DNA of 64,000 nt from Thermoanaerobaculia bacterium. GTDB lineage: Bacteria; Acidobacteriota; Thermoanaerobaculia; Multivoradales; Multivoraceae. The notes below the pieces were generated by a model that was not told where the DNA came from, ran no database searches, and saw only the letters and a list, made by a program, of their open reading frames with translations. Of this stretch, positions 43,973 through 64,000 are shown in pieces. The stretch spans positions 4,928,001 to 4,992,000 of the forward strand of contig OY761158.1 of the NCBI GenBank assembly GCA_963664405.1, written 5' to 3'. Made by a program: the position numbers and the translations under genes. Numbering within the stretch: the stretch's first letter is position 1; the number at the start of each line of letters is the position of its first letter.

Positions 43973-45317
43973 GATCAAGACACCGAATATCGACGCGCTG
44001 GCCGAGCGGGGCGTCGAGCTCGATCGCTACTACGCTTTCCCCATGTGTAGCCCGACGCGAGTTGCGTTGATGACGGGTCGGTCGCCAATTCGCCAGGGAG
44101 TCGACACTCCAATCGGTCCCCACGGCGGTATGCCACTCGATGAGCATCTGTTGCCGCAGACGCTGCGGACGGCCGGCTACCAGACCTTCATCACCGGCAA
44201 GTGGCATCTCGGGCTGGAGCACGCCGCCTCGCATCCAAATAACCGCGGCTTCGACCACGCCCACGGGCATCTCGCCTCTGCGGTCGACTACTTCACTCAC
44301 ATCTGGGAAGGTGGCCTCGACTGGCATCGCAACGGCAAGGTGATTCGCGAAGAGGGCTACACCACCGAGCTCATCACCGAAGAGGCCGTGAGCTTGATCG
44401 AGGGGCGCGACAAGTCGAAGCCGATGTTTCTCTACGTCGCCTTCAATGCGCCGCATTCGCCGCTGCAGTCGACCGAGAAGTATCTGCAGCGCTACCCGGA
44501 CATCGGCGATCCGTATAGGAAGCTCTTCGCCGCCATGGTGAGCGCGGTCGACGACGGAGTGGGCAAGATCCTCGATACCCTCGAGACGGAGGGCATCGCC
44601 GACGATACTCTGGTGGTTTGGGTCAGTGACAATGGAGGAGCGTTGCAGGCGGGCGCCGACAACAGCCCCTTGCGCGGTGGGAAGGGCACGACCTTTGAAG
44701 GCGGTCTCCGAGTTCCAGGCCTGATCTACCAGCCTGGCGTGCTCGAAGGCGGGAAGCTCAGCCAGATGTTCACCGCTCATGACTGGTTCCAGACCTTGAC
44801 CACGGCGGTCGGGGTGACACCAAAGAACACCAAGCCCTTCGACGGGATCGACATGTGGGCGGCGCTCAGCGAGGGCGAGAAGGCCGGCAGGCGCGACACG
44901 GTCATCGGCATCGACGGCAACTACACGATCTTCAGGCAAGGCTGGAAGTTGGTCGAACATACGCCGCGGCGAAGCGACACCACAACGATGCACCTGTTCC
45001 GTATTCTGGACGACCCCAGCGAAGAGCACGATCTCATCGATGAGAATCCGGATCTGGCCAAGGAGCTGTTGGCCGCTATCCGAGCGATTCCCCGTCCGCC
45101 CTCGGTCAGCCGAGACCGGCCCGGTGAAGGATTTCGGACCGCGCGTCGACAGAACGCAAGGACTGGGGGCGCTGGGCGTGGTGGCGGGGCCGGGGGGGGT
45201 GGTCGCGGCGGTGGAGTGAGGAATGGTGCTCGTGGTGGCGGTGGCGGCCGGGATCCCTTAGCGGGTTGGAAAGAGGAGACGCGGGAACCGTGGGTGGAGG
45301 TAGCGATCCGTGATTAA
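43854..45317 (+). CDS. Arylsulfatase (ArsB-like)
   Basis: PNILFMMVDDLGW, CSPTRVALMTGR, GKWHLG, SDNGG. Confidence 0.95.
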   Translation: MLYRMLLVFLLPALVHAKPNILFMMVDDLGWNDVGYHGSEIKTPNIDALAERGVELDRYYAFPMCSPTRVALMTGRSPIRQGVDTPIGPHGGMPLDEHLLPQTLRTAGYQTFITGKWHLGLEHAASHPNNRGFDHAHGHLASAVDYFTHIWEGGLDWHRNGKVIREEGYTTELITEEAVSLIEGRDKSKPMFLYVAFNAPHSPLQSTEKYLQRYPDIGDPYRKLFAAMVSAVDDGVGKILDTLETEGIADDTLVVWVSDNGGALQAGADNSPLRGGKGTTFEGGLRVPGLIYQPGVLEGGKLSQMFTAHDWFQTLTTAVGVTPKNTKPFDGIDMWAALSEGEKAGRRDTVIGIDGNYTIFRQGWKLVEHTPRRSDTTTMHLFRILDDPSEEHDLIDENPDLAKELLAAIRAIPRPPSVSRDRPGEGFRTARRQNARTGGAGRGGGAGGGGRGGGVRNGARGGGGGRDPLAGWKEETREPWVEVAIRD

Positions 45318-56248: not shown

Positions 56249-56510
56249 GGGGCAACGTCCTATTCTCGTCTGTGATCAATAGAATCATAGGCTTACGAGG
56301 ACTCCGCTCTTTGCGAGCCAGGTGCCACCCGAAAGTGTCGAACGAAGAGCAGATAGAGACTCAGAGACGTCCCGGCCAGCAATCCACCAACAAACGGGTG
56401 GCACCGTTGGCAGCCGAAGGCTGCCGGGGGCACGCGAGCGCGTAGAGGAATGGATTCACATTTGCGACGGGCGATGATCTCGTGATCCGATGCCAGAGGG
56501 AGGCCAGAGA

Positions 56511-57348
56511 ATGAAGCTCAAACAACCGACCTTTCTCATCCCGCTTGGCGGTCTCGTTCTGGTGCTGGGGATGGGCTGCTCGGATGCCTTGCCAGAGGCC
56601 GAGAAGGGAGAACAGGGAGGGGCCCGACGTCGCGTCACCGGTCCCGGCATCGGGAGCTGAAAAGCCCACAAGCTTGCCTATCGTCGACCGAGCCATCGAA
56701 TTCCACGGCGGCGACATCTACGAGGCCTCAAGGACCGCTCTAACGGTGACGTCGCGGTCGGGAAGTTTCGACCTCCTCGTGACGAGGAACAGCGGCGAGT
56801 TCGACTACACCGTGACGGGAAAGGTCGGCCGCGACCAGGTCGAGCGCAAGGTCCACTACATGAACACATCGGTGGAGCGTTGGGACAATGGTGAACCGTT
56901 CGAGCTCGACGAGGAAACGGCGCAGCGGGCCCGCAATTTCGTGAACGCCAGGGTCTACTTCCCCTTCCTGCCGTATGGGATCAATGGCGCTGAGGTATAC
57001 CGGGAGGATCTCGGGGTCGACATCTGGGAGGGCAAAGAGCTACACAAGGTTCGAGTGAGCTTCGAGCCGGGCACGTCGACGGACGCCGACGACCAATACA
57101 TGTACTGGTTCGATCCGGAGACCGGCGAGATGGCGATGTTCGGGTACGACTTCACGAACGGCCTTCGCCTGCGCAAGGTCAGCGGGTCGCAGCGGGTTGG
57201 CGGTGTGCTCTTCACGGATCAGGAGAACTACGCGATCGACGGGCAGGGCTTCTCGGTCCTCCAGCTGACGCCGGACTTCGTCGCCGAGAACATGGAGCTG
57301 CTCTCGACCGTGAAGCTCTCGAACGTGGAGGTGCAGGGGTCGAATTGA
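56511..57348 (+). pseudogene. DUF6503-like lipoprotein, frameshifted near 56615-56625
   Basis: ATG 56511 MKLKQ..LVLGMGC lipobox in one frame; body IVDRAIEFHGG..YFPFLPY..YMYWFDP in the +1 frame. Confidence 0.7.
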
Positions 57349-57350
57349 GC

Positions 57351-57379
57351 CTGTCGCGATGCACCGAATTTCACGACCG
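57351..57379 (+). repeat. 29-bp putative recombination site 1
   Basis: ctgtcgcgatg-caccgaa-tttcacgaccg; 2 nt after stop at 57348. Confidence 0.6.
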
Positions 57380-57420
57380 CCCGCCCCTCCGCTCAGAGGC
57401 TTATTTACTTTCGGCTATTC

Positions 57421-57432
57421 TTGTCGCAGTCC
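57421..57432 (+). repeat. Site 2, left part (split by IS110)
   Basis: ttgtcgcagtcC joins 58999-59015 to give ttgtcgcagtc-cgccaga-tttcacgacac. Confidence 0.75.
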
Positions 57433-57459
57433 CAAGGGATGAGATGTCAAGACAAATCT

Positions 57460-57828
57460 TTCCTAGGCCCTCGACGACTTGATATCGAGCGCGGTACTTT
57501 CCGTTACCGAGCCGGTCCGCTACGCGCAGTTCGGTCCTCAGATCGGTTGTGTGAGCGGTGCGGCGTTGGAGATAAGAAGCGAGTTTTGGTGTCCTACTAG
57601 GTTTGTGGACCAACTTCCCAACGGGGCCTCTTAGGCCATTTCTTCTTTCGGTCCTGTGAGGGGGCCTAGTTTCCGCCTGGTGACTTCCACCGTCTTCGAT
57701 GGGGCCGATGACGACACTGGAGACTTCCCCTCGACCTTTCGATCTCGCTGCCGATCCCGCTCCCGATCCAGGCTCCTGAGCTACGTCAGCCTGCAGACGG
57801 CTCGAGCAAGGAGCGGAGAAGGGGTGGC
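57460..57828 (-). ncRNA. Putative bridge/seek RNA of the IS110 (boundaries approximate)
   Basis: Contains GUGUCGUCAUC (57717-57707) and CCAGGCGGA (57680-57672), which match the target-site consensus. Confidence 0.6.
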
Positions 57829-58863
57829 TCAGCTCATGGGTTTGTACTCGCTTTCGGTCTTCCACATCGCCAAAACGATGGCCGCGAGCTTGCGCGCCAG
57901 CGTCAGCTGCGCCAGGTTCGGGTTCGTCCCGGCTTCTAGCATGCGGTCGTAGTGGTTGCGGAAGGGGTTGGGCGCCAACATCGTGCGCGCTGAGAGCGCC
58001 GCGCCCTTGAAGACCGCTTTCAGCGGCCGGTTGGATGCCCGATTCAAACCGCGGGTCTGGATCACCGGTGCGCGCACCCAGTGCCCGGACTGCTGGACCC
58101 AGTCCGAGGAGCTCCGAGTCACGATTCCCAGACCACAGTACGACCAAAACTGCCGCTTGGTGCGAAACCGGTGCGGTGTGACCACCGTTGCGAGCAGGAT
58201 CGCGGCTCGCTTCTTGGCAATCCCCGGTGCGGTCTGCAGCGTGCTCCAGACCGGAAACTGCGCAGCCGCAGCGTGCATCTGTTTCTCTGCTTTCTCGTGG
58301 AGCTCTGCGAGCAAATCGATCTGCTCGCCCCAGATCTCCGCGCACGGACGTCCGCTCGGAGGCAGCTGTTTTACCCACTTCGAGCGATGCCGTGGTAGGT
58401 AGAGGTCGCCGTTGGGGCACGTCACCCCCCGCCGACGGTAAAGGCTGTTCAAGCGCAGCTTCGTGCGAGTCAGATCCTGGGTCAGCTTCGACTCCAGGCG
58501 CACCGCTTCGCGCAAACGAGCCCACTCCTGCCCGGGCTTGTACACCGGCGGGCCCGTCCGATTCGTCCGCAGACGCTCTGCCAGCTCCCGAGCATCGCAG
58601 GCATCGCTCTTCGGACCTCGACGCTTCTCGGGCCGACAGACCACCAGGCGAGCCACCCACGGTGTCAGAATCTCTGAGATCCACTCGCCCCACTCGCCCT
58701 CTTCCACACAGACGTGCAGCGGCCCTCGAAGCTCCCGCACCGTCTTGACCAGCTCCGACCCTTCGGTCGGCACCACCATCTGCTTGACCTTCTTGCCTCG
58801 CGGGCTCACCAACGCCAGCGTGCAGCTGTCGCGGTGGGGATCGATGCCAAGGTATCGTTCCAT
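57829..58863 (-). CDS. IS110-family transposase/recombinase
   Basis: YLGIDPH, CVEEG, KSDACDA (DEDD); APGIA, RF..KRQFWSYCGLGIVTRSS, LARKLA. Confidence 0.95.
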   Translation of the reverse strand: MERYLGIDPHRDSCTLALVSPRGKKVKQMVVPTEGSELVKTVRELRGPLHVCVEEGEWGEWISEILTPWVARLVVCRPEKRRGPKSDACDARELAERLRTNRTGPPVYKPGQEWARLREAVRLESKLTQDLTRTKLRLNSLYRRRGVTCPNGDLYLPRHRSKWVKQLPPSGRPCAEIWGEQIDLLAELHEKAEKQMHAAAAQFPVWSTLQTAPGIAKKRAAILLATVVTPHRFRTKRQFWSYCGLGIVTRSSSDWVQQSGHWVRAPVIQTRGLNRASNRPLKAVFKGAALSARTMLAPNPFRNHYDRMLEAGTNPNLAQLTLARKLAAIVLAMWKTESEYKPMS

Positions 58864-58998
58864 CTTGGTCCTCCTTCCTGGGTCCAAGCCCAGGTGTTTG
58901 TGTTTCCCTAAGCTTGACGCCTTCGGGGGAGGACCACTCAAGAATATTCATCGACATCGTCCGGGGGCGCCACCCGCGCGCCATCCCATGATGTTTGC

Positions 58999-59015
58999 GC
59001 CAGATTTCACGACAC
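58999..59015 (+). repeat. Site 2, right part
   Basis: gccagatttcacgacac; 2 nt from the kinase stop at 59018. Confidence 0.75.
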
Positions 59016-59017
59016 GT

Positions 59018-61735
59018 TCACTCGGTAGGCACCAGCCGCTTCAGCTCCTCGAACCAGTTCACGACGACATGGAGCTTGGCGTTGATCTGCTCGTGTGCTC
59101 GCTTCACCACGAAGAGCTGCTGACCGTCCGAGGAGACATCATACGAGCGCCCCGGCGTATCGATGAAATCGGTTTCGAAGACGAGCTGCGCCGGGCCGAA
59201 CTCGATCTTCCGGCCCTGCCTGAACGTGTGCGCGAACCAGCGGTCACCATCGCGATAAAAGAGCTCGTCACAGCCACGGCAGACGTACGGCTCCATGCCT
59301 CCGTTGGTCGAGATCTGCTCATCGGCTTCGTCGCCTGGATAGGAGCGAACTCGAATCTCATAGCGACCCGTCCGGTTCGAACTGTGCGCAAACCATCTCC
59401 CGTCTCGAGAGAAATAGGGCGCGGCCTCGCTGGCGTCGCTACGAGAAGCCCAACGTACTGTATCGTCACCGATCTCTAGAAAGCCGAAACGGAACCTGCC
59501 GTCAAAGCTGTAGACCCCGAGCCTGTCGCCGTCCGGATGCCACGAACCCGGAGCAACGCGGGTCTCTCCCATAAACACTAGTTGCGGTTCCTCGTCGCGA
59601 TCTGCTGCCGCAATGAAGAGCCCATGCCCTTGCCCCGGCATCGCCGCCGTGAAAGCGATCTCATCGCCGTCCTGGCTCCACTTGGGCCAGCCCGCGTTAC
59701 CGGGCACGGTCAGTCTCCTCTCTGTCTTCGCCACGCGGTCCCAAATGACGATGTAGTCGTTGACATCTGCGACCTGAAGGGCGATCCGGGAACCGTCCGG
59801 GGAGAACTCGAAGTAACCGTAGACTCGCTCGGGTAGATCCAGGAACTCGACCGCTTCGGTGCCGCGGTCGATCGATGCGATCTTGCCGATCGCTGCGTCG
59901 CTTCCGGGCACATAGACCAGCGTACCTGTCGCCGAGAAGGCAACCTGAGCTTGGCCGAATAGCGATTCCATCCTCACATCTGGTACAACCGGAACTGAAG
60001 CGCCGAAGACCTCAAGGGCGGCGATGTCAAACGCTACCGCGTAGAGCGTCCCGGAGCGAGCGAACAGCAAGTGACCCGTGGGGACGTATCGCGCGTCGTA
60101 CCCGCGTTCGATCAGTAGCTTTCGCTCCAGTGTCTCTAGCGAGAGCAAATAGGTATTTGCATAGTCGTGGCCGATGCTCGTTAGGGCAGTCTGGATGAGT
60201 GCGTGCTTGCCGTCGGGAAGCACGTCGCTGAGGTATGTTTGACGGCCGCCGACTCCAAGGCTGTCGATCTCGGTGACAGTGCCGCCGGCTTCGGGAACGC
60301 TGCTCAGCGTGAACCCCTCGTCTTCAGCGAAAAAGATCGTTCCGTCAGCTACCCATGCAGCGTGTGTGGGATTCCTCGCCTTGCATACGGTTTGTGGGCG
60401 ATCTCCCTCTCTCAGCGAGACTTTCTTGACCTCTTGGTTGGTCAGGAATCCGAGCCAATCGCCGTCTGGCGAGAAGAATGCAAAGAGGGCGCCCTCCGTT
60501 CCCTCGATCGGCTCAGGTTCATCGAAGCTGTTGATGGGACGCTGGTAGAGCAGGGTGCCCGGGCCGTACTTGCCGATGTAAACGATAAGCGCCCCATCCG
60601 GAGATACGGCTACCTGCGGGCTATCAAACCCGAGAGCTGTTGTACCGAAGCCGAGAGGTGCTTCTGCCGGGAAATCGATCTCTGTGCGCACAACGACTGC
60701 CGCCGTGGGCGGCGACCTAGGCTCGGATCGTTGTCGCCACGCGGTACCAAGCCAAAGACCGGCCGCTAGGGTAGTCAGCGCGACGACGATGACCATAGCC
60801 AACGTGGAAACGGAAAACGCCCCGTGCCCGCCAGCCGGCACGGTCGCCACGACACGCTGCGACTCGGGATTGCGCAGCGCGTCGCTGATCTCGATTCGTG
60901 CGTCGGCGATATCGTGCAACCGATCCCTCGCGGGCTTTGTCAGGCAGCGCCTCAAGAGCCGAACGATCGAAGCTGGTGTCGGCGGCGGAAGTTGCTCCCA
61001 TTCAGGTTCCCGTTCAAGTATCTTTGCGAGTGTTTCGGGAGCCGTCTGCGCATCGAAACCGCGAGATGCAGTTAGCGCCTCAAAGAGGCAGACTCCGAAA
61101 GCCCAAATGTCCGCTCGCCGGTCGACCGCCTGACCTCTCGCCTGCTCGGGAGCCATGTAGGCGGCTGTGCCGAGAATCTGACCCCGTTGAGTTGCTGCAA
61201 GAGTGAGGGTCGGAGACTCGGACAAGCCGTCGTCTCCGCTCGCACTGCCTTCCACAGCCATCGCCTTGGCCAGCCCGAAATCGAGGATCTTGACCTGACC
61301 GTCTTCAGACACTTTGATGTTCGCGGGCTTCAGATCGCGGTGGATGACGCCCTTTTCGTGGGCTGCCTCCAGCCCCTCAGCGATCTGCAAGAAGACGGGC
61401 AATGCTTCGTCGACTGGCATGGCTCCTCTCTTGATGCGATCCGCTAGAGTCTCGCCCTCCACCAGTTCCATGACCAGGAAGCTGGTGTCGCCTTCCCGCT
61501 CGAAGGCGTAGAGCGTGGCTATGTTGTTGTGGTTCAACGAGGCCAGGACCCGCGCCTCGCGCTCGAAGCGAGCCAGACGTTCTGGATCGGTGGAGACCTC
61601 TTCGAGGAGGAGCTTGATCGCCACCTCGCGCCCGAGCTTCGTGTCCATGGCTCGATACACTTCTCCCATGCCTCCCGCACCAAGCGAGGAGACCACTTCG
61701 TAGTGGCCGAGCGTCGAACCAGCTTCCAGCGCCAT
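59018..61735 (-). CDS. Ser/Thr protein kinase with TM and TolB-like beta-propeller
   Basis: LGAGGMGEVY, VAIK, HRDLKPAN, DFGLAK, APE; SPDG repeats. Confidence 0.95.
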   Translation of the reverse strand: MALEAGSTLGHYEVVSSLGAGGMGEVYRAMDTKLGREVAIKLLLEEVSTDPERLARFEREARVLASLNHNNIATLYAFEREGDTSFLVMELVEGETLADRIKRGAMPVDEALPVFLQIAEGLEAAHEKGVIHRDLKPANIKVSEDGQVKILDFGLAKAMAVEGSASGDDGLSESPTLTLAATQRGQILGTAAYMAPEQARGQAVDRRADIWAFGVCLFEALTASRGFDAQTAPETLAKILEREPEWEQLPPPTPASIVRLLRRCLTKPARDRLHDIADARIEISDALRNPESQRVVATVPAGGHGAFSVSTLAMVIVVALTTLAAGLWLGTAWRQRSEPRSPPTAAVVVRTEIDFPAEAPLGFGTTALGFDSPQVAVSPDGALIVYIGKYGPGTLLYQRPINSFDEPEPIEGTEGALFAFFSPDGDWLGFLTNQEVKKVSLREGDRPQTVCKARNPTHAAWVADGTIFFAEDEGFTLSSVPEAGGTVTEIDSLGVGGRQTYLSDVLPDGKHALIQTALTSIGHDYANTYLLSLETLERKLLIERGYDARYVPTGHLLFARSGTLYAVAFDIAALEVFGASVPVVPDVRMESLFGQAQVAFSATGTLVYVPGSDAAIGKIASIDRGTEAVEFLDLPERVYGYFEFSPDGSRIALQVADVNDYIVIWDRVAKTERRLTVPGNAGWPKWSQDGDEIAFTAAMPGQGHGLFIAAADRDEEPQLVFMGETRVAPGSWHPDGDRLGVYSFDGRFRFGFLEIGDDTVRWASRSDASEAAPYFSRDGRWFAHSSNRTGRYEIRVRSYPGDEADEQISTNGGMEPYVCRGCDELFYRDGDRWFAHTFRQGRKIEFGPAQLVFETDFIDTPGRSYDVSSDGQQLFVVKRAHEQINAKLHVVVNWFEELKRLVPTE

Positions 61736-61795
61736 TAGATGGGCGGGATCTTATCTCTCACTGACCGGAGTCAGCTGGCAGGAGTCGCTTTCGCC

Positions 61796-61824
61796 GTGTC
61801 GTCCTCCGCCAGGAATCACGACAC
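61796..61824 (+). repeat. 29-bp putative recombination site 3
   Basis: gtgtcgtcctc-cgccagg-aatcacgacac. Confidence 0.8.
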
Positions 61825-61925
61825 CCCCACGAAGCAGAGTACCTCCTGAGTCGGCTCCGTATGGATACCTCAGGAGTACACTCGAGTCTCCGGGAGCATT
61901 CCCGAGTCACGAAAACCAGTTCGTC

Positions 61926-62225
61926 ATGTCCCGTATAGTTCACCGGACCCTTTGGTTGACTCTCTTTCTGGCGATCGCCTTCAATTCTCCACCGGTACTG
62001 ATTCACGCTGGTCCCCTCGGGATTCTTGCTCTGTTGCCTCTCGTCGTTTGGAGCTTGGCCGCGGTGCCCTTTTCCTTCTTTCTTCCGAACCACTTCGGCA
62101 TCACTGACTTCGGGCCGGAACCAGAGACCCCGTTTGCCGTTGGGCTCGTGGTCGCTGTCTGGTGCTTTGTCGCCTGGGTCGGGGCGGTTCTCCTCGTGAG
62201 AATCAAGGAGGCTCGGGAGTCGTGA
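61926..62225 (+). CDS. Small membrane protein
   Basis: 99 aa, about three hydrophobic segments. Confidence 0.55.
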   Translation: MSRIVHRTLWLTLFLAIAFNSPPVLIHAGPLGILALLPLVVWSLAAVPFSFFLPNHFGITDFGPEPETPFAVGLVVAVWCFVAWVGAVLLVRIKEARES

Positions 62226-62611
62226 AGGGATCCCTTCCTCGAGGGTTGGCACCGATGTCCTTCAGTTCCGCGTTGGGCTTTGGTATTTGGGCCGCTTCAC
62301 CGTTGATCACCGGTCGTGCAGAGCCCTGGGATGCCGAGATCACGTACTACACGCTCACCTCGGTGATCGGCGCGGCCGTGGTGGGCTACGCCTTCCCCCG
62401 CCATTGGCTGCTCGTCTTCCCCGGAGCCTGGTCAGGCCAGGTGATAGGACTGGCGGTCCTGCCGGGTCTTGACAGGGGATGGCTGCTTCTTGGGGCCATC
62501 ACGACCGGCATCGGCAGCCTACTCTTTCTTCCCGGTTCGGCCCTCGGTGCGCTCGTCGGCCGGCGGACGCGGAAGCGTCGGGGGGCGTCGAAGGAGAAGA
62601 CAGGGGACTAG
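62222..62611 (+). CDS. Small membrane protein
   Basis: AGGAGG RBS, GTG overlapping the upstream stop; ITGRAEPWDA; about four TM segments. Confidence 0.6.
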   Translation: MKGSLPRGLAPMSFSSALGFGIWAASPLITGRAEPWDAEITYYTLTSVIGAAVVGYAFPRHWLLVFPGAWSGQVIGLAVLPGLDRGWLLLGAITTGIGSLLFLPGSALGALVGRRTRKRRGASKEKTGD

Positions 62612-62629
62612 CTTGCCTCGGCGGGGAAG

Positions 62630-62658
62630 GTGTCGTGGTTCGCCAGATTTTGCGACAC
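62630..62658 (+). repeat. 29-bp putative recombination site 4
   Basis: gtgtcgtggtt-cgccaga-ttttgcgacac; 2 nt from the stop at 62661. Confidence 0.8.
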
Positions 62659-62660
62659 TC

Positions 62661-62801
62661 TCAGTCGGCGGGCACGCCGCTAGCCAGAACGCCCGAGTCT
62701 TCCAGGTCCTTCTTCAAGTCTTCAAACTCCTTCCGGAGCTTGGCTATCAGCCCCCAGGCAATGATCCCAAATGTCATTCCAATCATTCCAAACACTTCCA
62801 T
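62661..62801 (-). CDS. 46-aa TM plus coiled-coil microprotein
   Basis: AGGAGA RBS; MEVFGMIGMTFGIIAWGLIAKLRKEFEDLKKDLEDSGVLASGVPAD. Confidence 0.65.
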   Translation of the reverse strand: MEVFGMIGMTFGIIAWGLIAKLRKEFEDLKKDLEDSGVLASGVPAD

Positions 62802-62918
62802 TGTGCTTCTCCTTTTCCTTGGTCACAGCAGACTGTCCGGTGTAGCTGTCGGCGCTCGCCTGGCTTGCCCCGTGACTCCAGCCTGAGGGTCGGGCGTGGG
62901 GCTGAAGCGCGACGCCCA

Positions 62919-63350
62919 TCAGAGCGCAAGCGCGCCGAAGTAGACAAAGGGCGCGCTGATGGCGATGCGCACCAGTCCCAACAGGCGCCACCCGATCAGG
63001 CTCCCACTCAGGTCAGAGGGCACGAACGCCTGGATGATGGCTCGGAAAGAGCCTGGGAACAGCACCAACGCTGTTGTCATGAACACGACCAAGACCCAGC
63101 CGATGAGCGACAGGATGAACGCCAAGGTGCTCTGCCCATTCAGGTCCAAGGACCCCTGCTCTGAAGCTCCTGCCCAAATCATCGCCAACCCGAGTGGGAG
63201 CAAGAACGCCCCGAACGTTCGGGTTCGACCGTTCGTCGTGGTCGTCCTAGTGAACCAGCGCAGCACAGACGCTGGCGCGACGAAGACGAAGCCCCCGTAG
63301 CCAACACCGAGGACCCCAACCGCGATGCTCACGATTCCAAGCGCGCTCAC
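62919..63350 (-). CDS. Membrane protein
   Basis: AAGGAGG RBS; about four TM segments. Confidence 0.7.
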   Translation of the reverse strand: MSALGIVSIAVGVLGVGYGGFVFVAPASVLRWFTRTTTTNGRTRTFGAFLLPLGLAMIWAGASEQGSLDLNGQSTLAFILSLIGWVLVVFMTTALVLFPGSFRAIIQAFVPSDLSGSLIGWRLLGLVRIAISAPFVYFGALAL

Positions 63351-63474
63351 GAGCCCTCCTTAGAGACTTCCTTGGGGGTGGCTGAACAAGCTACCCGAGT
63401 GGCTGCTTTCAGCGACATCGAATGGACAGCATTCTAGCTGGCGGTTCAGGAGCCTGATAGCTATTCAGCTCTTC

Positions 63475-63503
63475 CTGTCGTCCTTCGCCAGGAAGTGCGA
63501 CAG
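63475..63503 (+). repeat. 29-bp putative recombination site 5
   Basis: ctgtcgtcctt-cgccagg-aagtgcgacag. Confidence 0.8.
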
Positions 63504-63543
63504 CCTCAGCCGCCACTCGGGAGAGCGGCGTCTTGAGGCGACC

Positions 63544-63999
63544 TCAGGTCTTAGCCATCTCGCCCAGACCCACCCGGCTCATCGCAGACAGGAAACGAGG
63601 ATCAGACCGAACCGGAGCCGACCAGCGGAACACCAGCCACACCATCGCTATCAGGGTGCCCTCGTCGACGGCCTTCTCCAGGAAGTCCAGGGCCGTATCG
63701 TAGTCCCCTATCCCCAGATAGAGGATACCGACGTAGGCAGGCGGTACGTAGCGCAACTTCGAGATGGCCACGAGCTTGTTCAGATGTTTCTTGGCTTCCT
63801 CTTGCTGGCCCATACCCTCAAGGACGGCGCACAAGCGAGCGTAGACATAGTAGGCCTCCTCACCCGCGACTGATAGTGCCCGCGAGAAAGCGCGGTGGGC
63901 AGCCTCGAGGTCTCCGGTTTCACAATAGGTGTCACCCAGAAACTGGAGCGCGAGATAGTAGTTTCGATCCGTCGTGAGAACACGTTCAAGTTGAGCGAG
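63544..63999 (-). CDS. TPR-containing protein C-terminus (kinase/cyclase TPR-tail type), partial
   Basis: Open to the window end; YVPPAYVGILYLGIGDYDTALDFLEKA..VRSDPRF..RVGL. Confidence 0.75.
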   Translation of the reverse strand, partial: LAQLERVLTTDRNYYLALQFLGDTYCETGDLEAAHRAFSRALSVAGEEAYYVYARLCAVLEGMGQQEEAKKHLNKLVAISKLRYVPPAYVGILYLGIGDYDTALDFLEKAVDEGTLIAMVWLVFRWSAPVRSDPRFLSAMSRVGLGEMAKT

Positions 64000-64000
64000 C

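Follow-up and report, generated by a model that had tools for sequence, protein, structure and literature searches.

A putative cassette-shuffling system on 27-bp duplex sites in a Thermoanaerobaculia chromosome, probably driven by a minimal tyrosine recombinase

Results

The window holds one end of an array of gene cassettes separated by co-oriented sites

We analyzed a stretch of 64,000 nucleotides (here called the window) from a Thermoanaerobaculia bacterium (NCBI GenBank assembly GCA_963664405.1, contig OY761158.1), whose genome is a single contig of 6.78 Mb with 62.6% G+C in which the window occupies positions 4,928,001-4,992,000. From 57352 onward, the window holds one end of an array in which genes are separated by short sites that all point the same way and that we interpret as putative recombination sites bounding movable gene cassettes. 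An earlier note on this DNA, made from its letters alone, had listed five such sites and suggested cassette shuffling. All five were found in place and in a single orientation, with the correction that the right half of the one split site starts at 58998 and not at 58999. Aligned copies from the whole genome gave the consensus TGTCG-N5-C[G/A]CC-N8-CGACA, which is 27 bp long (29 with flanking bases). We count site positions from 0 on this 27-mer, the left arm being positions 0-9 and the CRCC core positions 10-13. Two types of site can be told apart, namely type B, with the core CGCC and usually with GCTATA-NN ahead of it, and type A, with the core CACC.

Downstream, the array closes with a type A site (57352-57378, plus strand) whose right end, CGACC, has one mismatch. 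This site is followed by a spacer (57379-57421, plus strand) that is conserved in an alignment of 27 A-spacer-B units, with an inverted repeat CCTC..GAGG and the motif GCTATTC just before the B site. This B site is interrupted: its left arm (positions 0-9; 57422-57431, plus strand) is separated from its core and right arm (CGCC...CGACA; 58998-59014, plus strand) by an IS110-family insertion sequence (57432-58997, minus strand), inserted at about position 10/11 and carrying a DEDD transposase open reading frame (ORF) at 57829-58941 (Pfam DEDD_Tnp_IS110 and Transposase_20). Only 3 nt (59015-59017) lie between the right half of the site and the stop codon of a cassette gene for a Ser/Thr protein kinase of 905 aa (59018-61735, minus strand; Pfam Pkinase, 2e-50), which ends in a C-terminal PD40/TolB-like beta-propeller (PD40, 4.5e-10).

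Three more B sites follow on the plus strand, at 61797-61823, 62631-62657, and 63476-63502. The first two enclose a cassette of about 840 bp (61824-62630, plus strand) with two small predicted membrane ORFs (61926-62225 and 62162-62611), which run in the direction opposite to the kinases and match no Pfam family. Between the second and the third lie a 46-aa ORF that is a candidate hydrophobic microprotein (62661-62801, minus strand) and a cassette gene for a predicted membrane protein of 143 aa (62919-63350, minus strand), both likewise matching no Pfam family, with the remains of a degenerate site between them (62847-62914, plus strand). The possible sixth site that had been placed at 62846 stands in part, as its left arm and CGCC are present (62847-62860) and only a degenerate remnant of the right arm is left (62888-62914). 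The window ends within the next cassette gene (3' part at 63544-64000, minus strand), which encodes 763 aa in the genome and groups with the kinase paralog family, its C-terminus being what had been read as a TPR gene. The remark that three stop codons lie 2 nt from a site edge was checked and is correct.

We asked whether the spacing of the site is unusual. In the window, TGTCG-N17-CGAC gave 8 strand-matches against 1.52 +/- 1.49 in shuffled sequences (0 of 100 shuffles reached 8), and a further window match, at 44081, is an isolated partial look-alike. In the genome, TGTCG-N17-CGACA gave 118 matches, compared with 6-32 at each other spacing from N5 to N30. The weight-matrix scan that had been recommended gave 120 genome matches at a score of at least 14 and 5 on the reversed sequence, while strict copies numbered 88 in this genome and 0 in the reversed control. 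As for the central 7-mer that had been described as conserved, C[G/A]CC is kept genome-wide and the next three bases vary.

Sites are clustered into arrays of kinase and other cassettes

For clustering, 108 sites with a CRCC core were scored. Results showed that 95 of them fall in eight loci, comprising seven arrays (10-22 sites, 13-35 kb) and one single-site locus, and that orientation is uniform inside each array (13/13, 10/10, 22/22, 12/12, 11/11, 15/15, and 11/11). The sites are thus not scattered singly in random orientation, an arrangement that the earlier note had named as speaking against cassettes. The array in the window, array 7, extends over genome positions 4,985,352-5,004,316 (about 19 kb), so that the window shows its first 6.7 kb and 12.4 kb lie beyond.

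Read in gene direction, the usual unit opens with a stop codon, which a B site follows within a few bases. Next come a conserved spacer of 39 nt holding a small inverted repeat, then an A site, and finally a conserved leader, about 60 nt long, that reaches the start codon of the next gene. Genome-wide, the A and B sites of 28 pairs are separated by 57-70 bp, and 23 intervals measure 2.5-3.0 kb. Nor do the sites lie at promoters only, the other arrangement that had been considered, as A sites are found about 60 nt upstream of kinase starts and B sites directly after stops. The 2.7-kb cassette genes encode Ser/Thr kinases of about 900 aa with a C-terminal PD40-type beta-propeller, and the arrays hold 30 such paralogs, with identities of 27-100% (median 43%). 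Other cassettes carry methyltransferases, an MFS transporter, a sulfatase, and small proteins without a family, and some non-kinase cassettes are on the opposite strand (for example, window 61926-62611). Overall, array ORFs of at least 100 aa are divided 67 to 20 between the strands, the minority including insertion-sequence genes.

The upstream end of every array has an A site that is followed, after about 55 nt, by a lone right arm (GGCGACA) and, after another 3 nt, by a B-like site in inverted orientation, the only inverted site. These conserved modules lie at genome 41243-41362, 617694-617813, 747662-747781, 873756-873875, 3944777-3944896, 4411763-4411882, 5004316-5004435, and 6523119-6523238. 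We also noticed a pair of neighbouring ORFs (440 and 438 aa) at genome 5456724-5459403, which fall in the kinase paralog family and are probably one kinase cassette broken by a frameshift or stop. In addition, genome 2682982-2683030 (locus L017) contains an A-type left arm plus CACC joined to a near-perfect palindrome, followed by an inverted second left arm and core. This locus adjoins a 98.8% copy of the DUF6503 gene that borders the window array, and its structure may be the product of an aberrant or inversion event.

Sites resemble protein-binding sites on duplex DNA rather than hairpins

The earlier note had stated that the inner arms of the sites do not pair, and base-pair statistics bear this out. 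Among 59 B sites, Watson-Crick pairs at positions 5/21 to 8/18 numbered 29, 14, 14, and 32, where independence predicts 28.5, 18.5, 9.6, and 30.2; the inner arms of A sites likewise paired as often as expected from independence, and no covariation was found at inner-arm positions 5-12. The outer 6-7 bp are able to pair, forming as DNA a weak stem of -5 to -7 kcal/mol. An Rfam scan of window 56500-64000 returned nothing at gathering score. We considered a reading of the site as a hairpin, attC, or REP element and rejected it, given inner arms without covariation and folding limited to the weak outer stem. Since only the outer base pairs can pair and the inner arms do not covary, the site looks like a protein site on duplex DNA. 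Its two inverted arms, short asymmetric centre, and homology breakpoints at positions 10-16 correspond to the general layout of a tyrosine-recombinase core site.

Homology between cassette copies ends at site centres

Segments shared between arrays are 94-99.7% identical and have differing neighbours. A 3.8-kb segment common to arrays 1 and 3 (28161/759557 and 31969/755749; 99.7%) begins at position 10 of one B site and stops at position 15 of another. Similarly, the 840-bp cassette of the window is 98.4% identical to genome 767719-768573 in array 3, where it is flanked by B sites and has other neighbours, and the identity runs from position 10 of site 61797 to position 16 of site 62631. Window 62909-63490 (582 bp) is 99.5% identical to genome 599488-600069 in array 2, up to position 14 of site 63476. 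Three other matches stop at position 13: the 938 bp left of the window A site at 57352 (98.8% to genome 2.683 Mb), a 2.3-kb segment inside array 5 (3953450/3962734), and the kinase 5' region with its leader (window 61256-61810; 90% to genome 23769-24323), which stops there in a B site. As site centres make up well under 1% of the arrays, randomly placed duplication ends would not land in them.

The spacer units provide the clearest example. A 62-nt unit, which begins at position 14 of an A site and closes at position 9 of the B site after it, occurs at four places, three of them identical and the fourth one base off. Outside it, the A left arm exists in three versions and the B right arm in four, and the arms change likewise around three more inner units with two copies each. 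We also looked at arm linkage in 60 B sites and saw none between the variable parts of the left and right arms: their mutual information was 3.80 against a shuffled mean of 3.84 and four-gamete quartets were present, a comparison of low power with 60 combinations in 60 sites. Exchange inside CRCC (positions 10-13) or at its edges would fit all the homology ends. The earlier prediction of breakpoints in a 7-bp spacer was thus right in placing homology ends in the site centre, but these map to CRCC and need no conserved 7-bp spacer.

Seven sequencing runs contain at least half of the sampled words of the stretch, as contigs only. The four runs that we examined consist of Logan contigs, not reads, which break at repeated sites, and their joints fall in the conserved kinase-domain region, as expected from paralogs. 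One run contig (X6 record 24) joins window 62909-64000 to 165 letters on its left that are unlike the window; as a hint only, the 143-aa cassette may have another neighbour on its left in a different sample.

A small tyrosine recombinase gene lies between two sites

As already noted, the window contains no recombinase besides the IS110-family transposase. In the genome, where we found 25 Phage_integrase and 12 resolvase matches, a look for tyrosine recombinases beside arrays, which the earlier note had proposed, revealed one intact gene at the downstream end of array 8, between two sites: its start is preceded by a B site at a distance of about 100 nt, and an A site follows 30 nt past its stop. 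The ORF (genome 5,456,062-5,456,601; L016:1062-1601, minus strand) encodes 179 aa, probably 175 from the second Met. It matches PF00589 (Phage_integrase) at 102 bits (cut-off 27), and R44, K68, H128, R131, H154, and Y163, corresponding to the R, K, HxxR, H, Y set, are in invariant columns of 21 aligned sequences. The best NCBIfam matches were to XerA, XerC, XerD, and integron integrases, in each case to the C-terminal half and with scores that stayed far under the cut-offs, and in a comparison with solved structures (PDB 5hxy and 4a8e) the protein aligned only to XerA residues 133-309. It therefore consists of the catalytic domain only, and no N-terminal core-binding domain was found in it. 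Remnants of the gene lie at two other loci, a 35-residue N-terminal piece beside the last site of array 3 (genome 783022-783126) and a C-terminal piece 190 bp from the end of locus 4 (genome 874069-874206).

The recombinase belongs to a large family (2691 proteins at E <= 0.001 among 2762 candidates), and its best 120 homologs are nearly all of 175 aa (range 152-200). Hosts include Poribacteria, Aerophobetes, Clostridia, Acidobacteriota, Elusimicrobiota, Nitrospirota, Planctomycetota, Methanosarcinales, and nanoarchaea, and orthologs are also present on seven predicted viral contigs. Of the 10 bacterial ortholog loci, 6 have, at most 300 bp upstream of the gene, a 27-mer whose ends form a perfect inverted repeat of 6 bp, with arms that vary (TGTCGC, GTTCGC, TTGCGC) and a geometry that is kept; when 18 ortholog loci were scanned for exact TGTCG-N17-CGACA, all five matches were upstream of the gene. 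The arm-NNN-arm junction of the array upstream ends, which in this genome reads GCGACA-NNN-TGTCGC, was also found just upstream of the gene in L022, L028, and L030 (Poribacteria, Nitrospirota, and Planctomycetota). At some ortholog loci the gene adjoins a ParA-like gene, as read from translated starts. Because such sites accompany both this gene and its orthologs, we assign the sites to the small recombinase, and we infer from these sequence associations that the 175-179-aa, catalytic-domain-only protein would be the enzyme acting on them.

We also observed another short tyrosine-recombinase frame (genome 2675383-2676045, 221 aa), which is 37% identical to the Xer-like genes of this genome (3565677-3566696 and 5350023-5351009) and lies within a small outlying group of sites (2674280, 2681998, and 2684027).

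Sites are rare in relatives and recur in metagenomes

Thirty relatives contained 0-5 strict site copies each, versus 88 here. Only one of them, G008, had look-alike sites (4 matches), and it was also the only one of five tested relatives with the recombinase gene, present as three frame-shifted pieces 312 bp from a site. The B-type pattern with the GCTAT prefix, found 36 times here, had a single occurrence in each of 2 genomes among 400 others sampled from the phylum. On the side of metagenomes, 93 contigs carry a B-type site, with 177 strict sites in all and cassettes of about 0.4 to 2.9 kb, and in each of the 58 contigs that have two or more sites these are co-oriented. Such arrays are therefore present in related uncultured organisms too. 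Only 5 of the 93 contigs, L160 among them, have a segment that shows at least 85% identity over at least half its own length, which is too little near-identity to test reordering, and tblastn with the small recombinase against these short contigs found no copy.

Mobile elements at the sites

The IS110-family element of the window has a 99.4% copy at genome 779050-780613 in array 3, followed there by a different B right half, CGCCACAAATCACGACA, joined at the same point, so that two copies sit at about position 10/11 of B sites. A 70% relative is inserted in another B site at about genome 5459550-5461090. These elements have a long non-coding end 3' of the transposase, as in the IS1111 group.

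A second element, of 2.6 kb, encodes a 286-aa tyrosine recombinase (Phage_integrase plus SAM_4) and then a 408-aa IS91-type Y2 transposase. Integrase genes occur in some IS91-family elements. We found four full-length copies (two of them 5'-truncated in the alignment) and two shorter partial matches, with five Pfam-matching loci; the full copies lie at genome 34789-37391, 41380-43976, and 887165-889767 and the partial ones at 596927-599449, 615191-617709, and 1011285-1012249 (loci L002, L003, L004, L020, and L021). Several copies are inside arrays. Three have an end at 17-19 nt from a B-like site and break up the A-B spacer, which marks the element as an invader and not as a resident part of the arrays. 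A resolvase (serine recombinase plus helix-turn-helix) is encoded at genome 6509415-6510104, 160 bp from the first site of array 9. As candidates for the enzyme, both the IS91-type recombinase and this resolvase give the impression of invaders or neighbours, not of components of the system. A second resolvase, 91% identical to the first, lies at genome 2755044-2755679, beside a kinase fragment.

Discussion

A model of cassette shuffling and its alternatives

We propose that the sites are double-stranded recombination sites, with inverted arms, a conserved outer TGTCG/CGACA, and an asymmetric C[G/A]CC core, which would divide eight chromosomal arrays into cassettes, mostly with one receptor-type Ser/Thr kinase each. 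As the sites of an array all point one way, recombination between two of them would excise the intervening DNA as a one-site circle, and the circle could re-enter at any compatible site, with the outcome that cassettes would be copied, lost, and reordered within and between arrays. Excision via circles, and exchange within or at the edge of CRCC, are what we infer from the arrangement of the sites and from the ends of homology. Considering the clustering, the co-orientation, the homology ends at the core, and the recombinase beside sites, which all support the shuffling first suggested from the window, we give a probability of about two in three to a cassette-shuffling system on 27-bp duplex sites that is probably driven by the minimal tyrosine recombinase. 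A broader proposal, which we make tentatively and at slightly less than even odds, is that this is an undescribed platform parallel to integrons, in which a minimal recombinase family, spread over phyla, archaea, and predicted viruses, would have been recruited here to shuffle arrays of about 100 sites that store 30 receptor kinases and other genes, with exchange at the 4-bp core that would possibly involve one strand.

Several observations weigh against this interpretation. The small recombinase has a single intact copy and lacks the N-terminal DNA-binding domain that other tyrosine recombinases use. No clear site was seen beside its archaeal (0/6) or viral-contig (0/7) orthologs, and two genomes with one B-type match each (G192 and G406) contained no recombinase at E <= 1e-15; the relatives compared all lie outside this genus. 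Differences between partner sites are frequent at positions 14-16, and this would be unusual with a classical overlap of 6-8 bp; that several pairs differ already at position 14 points to an overlap that is short, or else to the exchange of one strand with completion by replication. One metagenome contig (L160), about 99% identical to the flank of array 1, loses identity in a kinase 5' remnant and not in a site, so that homologous recombination between conserved kinase 5' regions must also act. No excised circle, empty site, or strain reordering was seen, the run data being contigs, which cannot show excision. Moreover, as the kinase cassettes have their own conserved leader, the A site could also be regulatory.

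This last point leads to an alternative in which the sites are operators or promoter boxes for a dimeric regulator, duplicated in tandem with the kinase genes and kept alike by selection and gene conversion. Such an explanation would account for the fixed place of the A site in the leader, for the GCTATA ahead of B sites, for an outer 5-bp inverted repeat whose halves are two helical turns apart, as for a dimer, for the absence of hairpin covariation, and for the homologous exchange in kinase 5' regions. We nevertheless regard it as improbable: B sites follow stops and are found beside non-kinase genes of both strands as well, the core is a target of IS110-family elements, and similar 27-bp sites accompany the recombinase gene in unrelated phyla without kinase arrays. 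Furthermore, the homology of cassette copies ends in a zone of 4-7 bp within the site at eight boundaries at least, in addition to the 62-nt units, and duplication or conversion would not produce such ends.

The sites could also be true recombination sites served by another enzyme, that is, the 286-aa recombinase of the IS91-type element, the host XerC/XerD, or the small serine recombinase by array 9. The 286-aa protein has both core-binding and catalytic domains, whereas the small recombinase is without the N-terminal one; in three copies of its element the right end comes within 17-19 nt of a B-like site, and the resolvase gene lies close to an array. We give little credence to this possibility, considering that the full IS91-type copy at 887165-889767 has no site at either flank, that in arrays the element breaks the A-B spacer, and that no candidate but the small recombinase has an A site on one side and a B site on the other, with the same site next to orthologs in other phyla. 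As for serine recombinases, these act with a 2-bp central stagger, to which a 27-bp site with a single central base does not correspond. Least of all do we expect the sites to be a passive intergenic repeat of REP/MITE type, spread by a transposase or serving as a landing pad for IS110, that moves no cassettes. The sites are indeed short and intergenic, with palindromic ends and about 100 copies, and the targeting of such repeats by IS110-family elements is described in PMC11187229 and PMC11208160 and is observed here as well; the genome also has 13 weak Y1_Tnp matches. None of these 13 is in or beside an array, however, the stem does not covary, and the sites are confined to strictly co-oriented arrays instead of being dispersed. 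A passive repeat would also leave unexplained why homology breaks off at the core at either end of shared cassettes.

Comparison with known recombination systems

The textbook case of cassette movement by site-specific recombination is the integron, and dif modules provide a second case of narrower scope. The arrays described here are like integrons in that they are long and co-oriented, with mostly one gene per cassette and with the same cassette in different arrays, and in that IS110/IS1111-family elements insert into the sites, as IS1111 elements that target attC exist. On the contrary, the sites are of 27 bp, without hairpin covariation and without RYYYAAC/GTTRRRY cores, in agreement with the earlier finding that they match neither attC nor the 28-bp Xer site. 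There is no IntI, and with the integron integrase model (TIGR02249) the best match in the whole genome reached 122 bits against a cut-off of 265, the small recombinase scoring 68 bits; the candidate enzyme has 175-179 aa and is a catalytic domain only. Other differences are the large cassettes (2.7 kb), the leader that kinase cassettes carry, the alternation of two site types (CACC and CGCC), and the position of the recombinase gene at the downstream end of an array, between two sites. Of the features that define integrons, the genome thus has the co-oriented array and lacks both the integrase, which has an extra domain particular to its family, and attC, whose imperfect palindromes fold as single strands and carry R''/L''/L'/R' cores.

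The pdif sites of Acinetobacter plasmids are 28 bp long (11-6-11), alternate in orientation around a module, and are acted on by the host XerC/XerD. Like the cassettes here, dif modules are genes bounded by short duplex sites with inverted arms and a short centre, and the shuffling between replicons of pdif gene modules bounded by Xer-type sites is described in PMC6449649, PMC13141974, and PMC7399989. In our case, the sites differ from these in their length of 27 bp, with an odd centre, in being co-oriented and chromosomal, with about 100 per genome, and in having a dedicated small recombinase. Neither a 28-bp XerC-6-XerD site nor alternating orientation was found.

Among Xer/XerA-type enzymes and those that resolve plasmid and phage dimers, the closest counterparts of the small recombinase are the catalytic domains of XerA, XerC, XerD, and IntI, but the protein is without the core-binding domain of about 100-130 residues at their N-terminus, and its putative sites are multiplied into cassette arrays in this genome. 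PMC8138268, a survey of tyrosine recombinases, describes "simple" ones with both domains. We found no description of such arrays or of the small recombinase family in the literature covered, to which the supplementary tables of PMC8138268, which could list the family, did not belong.

Shufflons (Rci, sfx sites) have many short asymmetric sites with variable arms, in inverted orientation, and invert segments of one gene. The present system would be similar in rearranging neighbouring segments at many short asymmetric sites with variable arms, and it is different in that the sites are direct repeats bounding whole genes, an inversion layout not having been found. Finally, REP/BIME-RAYT elements are set apart by a compensatory stem and by a Y1 transposase at the repeats, neither of which was found here.

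If the model holds, this would be a third cassette system, with a different site and a much smaller enzyme, which would mean that cassette platforms arose more than once. It would also provide a natural tyrosine recombinase that works without a core-binding domain, and it would tie cassette shuffling to signalling genes, namely receptor kinases, and not to resistance or metabolism. About 160 kb of chromosome in eight arrays could then be annotated as one system, and the small enzyme with its short site could serve as a compact recombination tool.

Other insertion sequences

Two high-copy insertion sequences, with 99.9-100% identity between copies, were also observed in this genome, some of their copies being inside or beside arrays. 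The longer, of about 3.39 kb, lies at genome 4414141-4417531 and more than 25 other places, and the shorter, of about 1.95 kb, at genome 602346-604290 and more than 12 other places.

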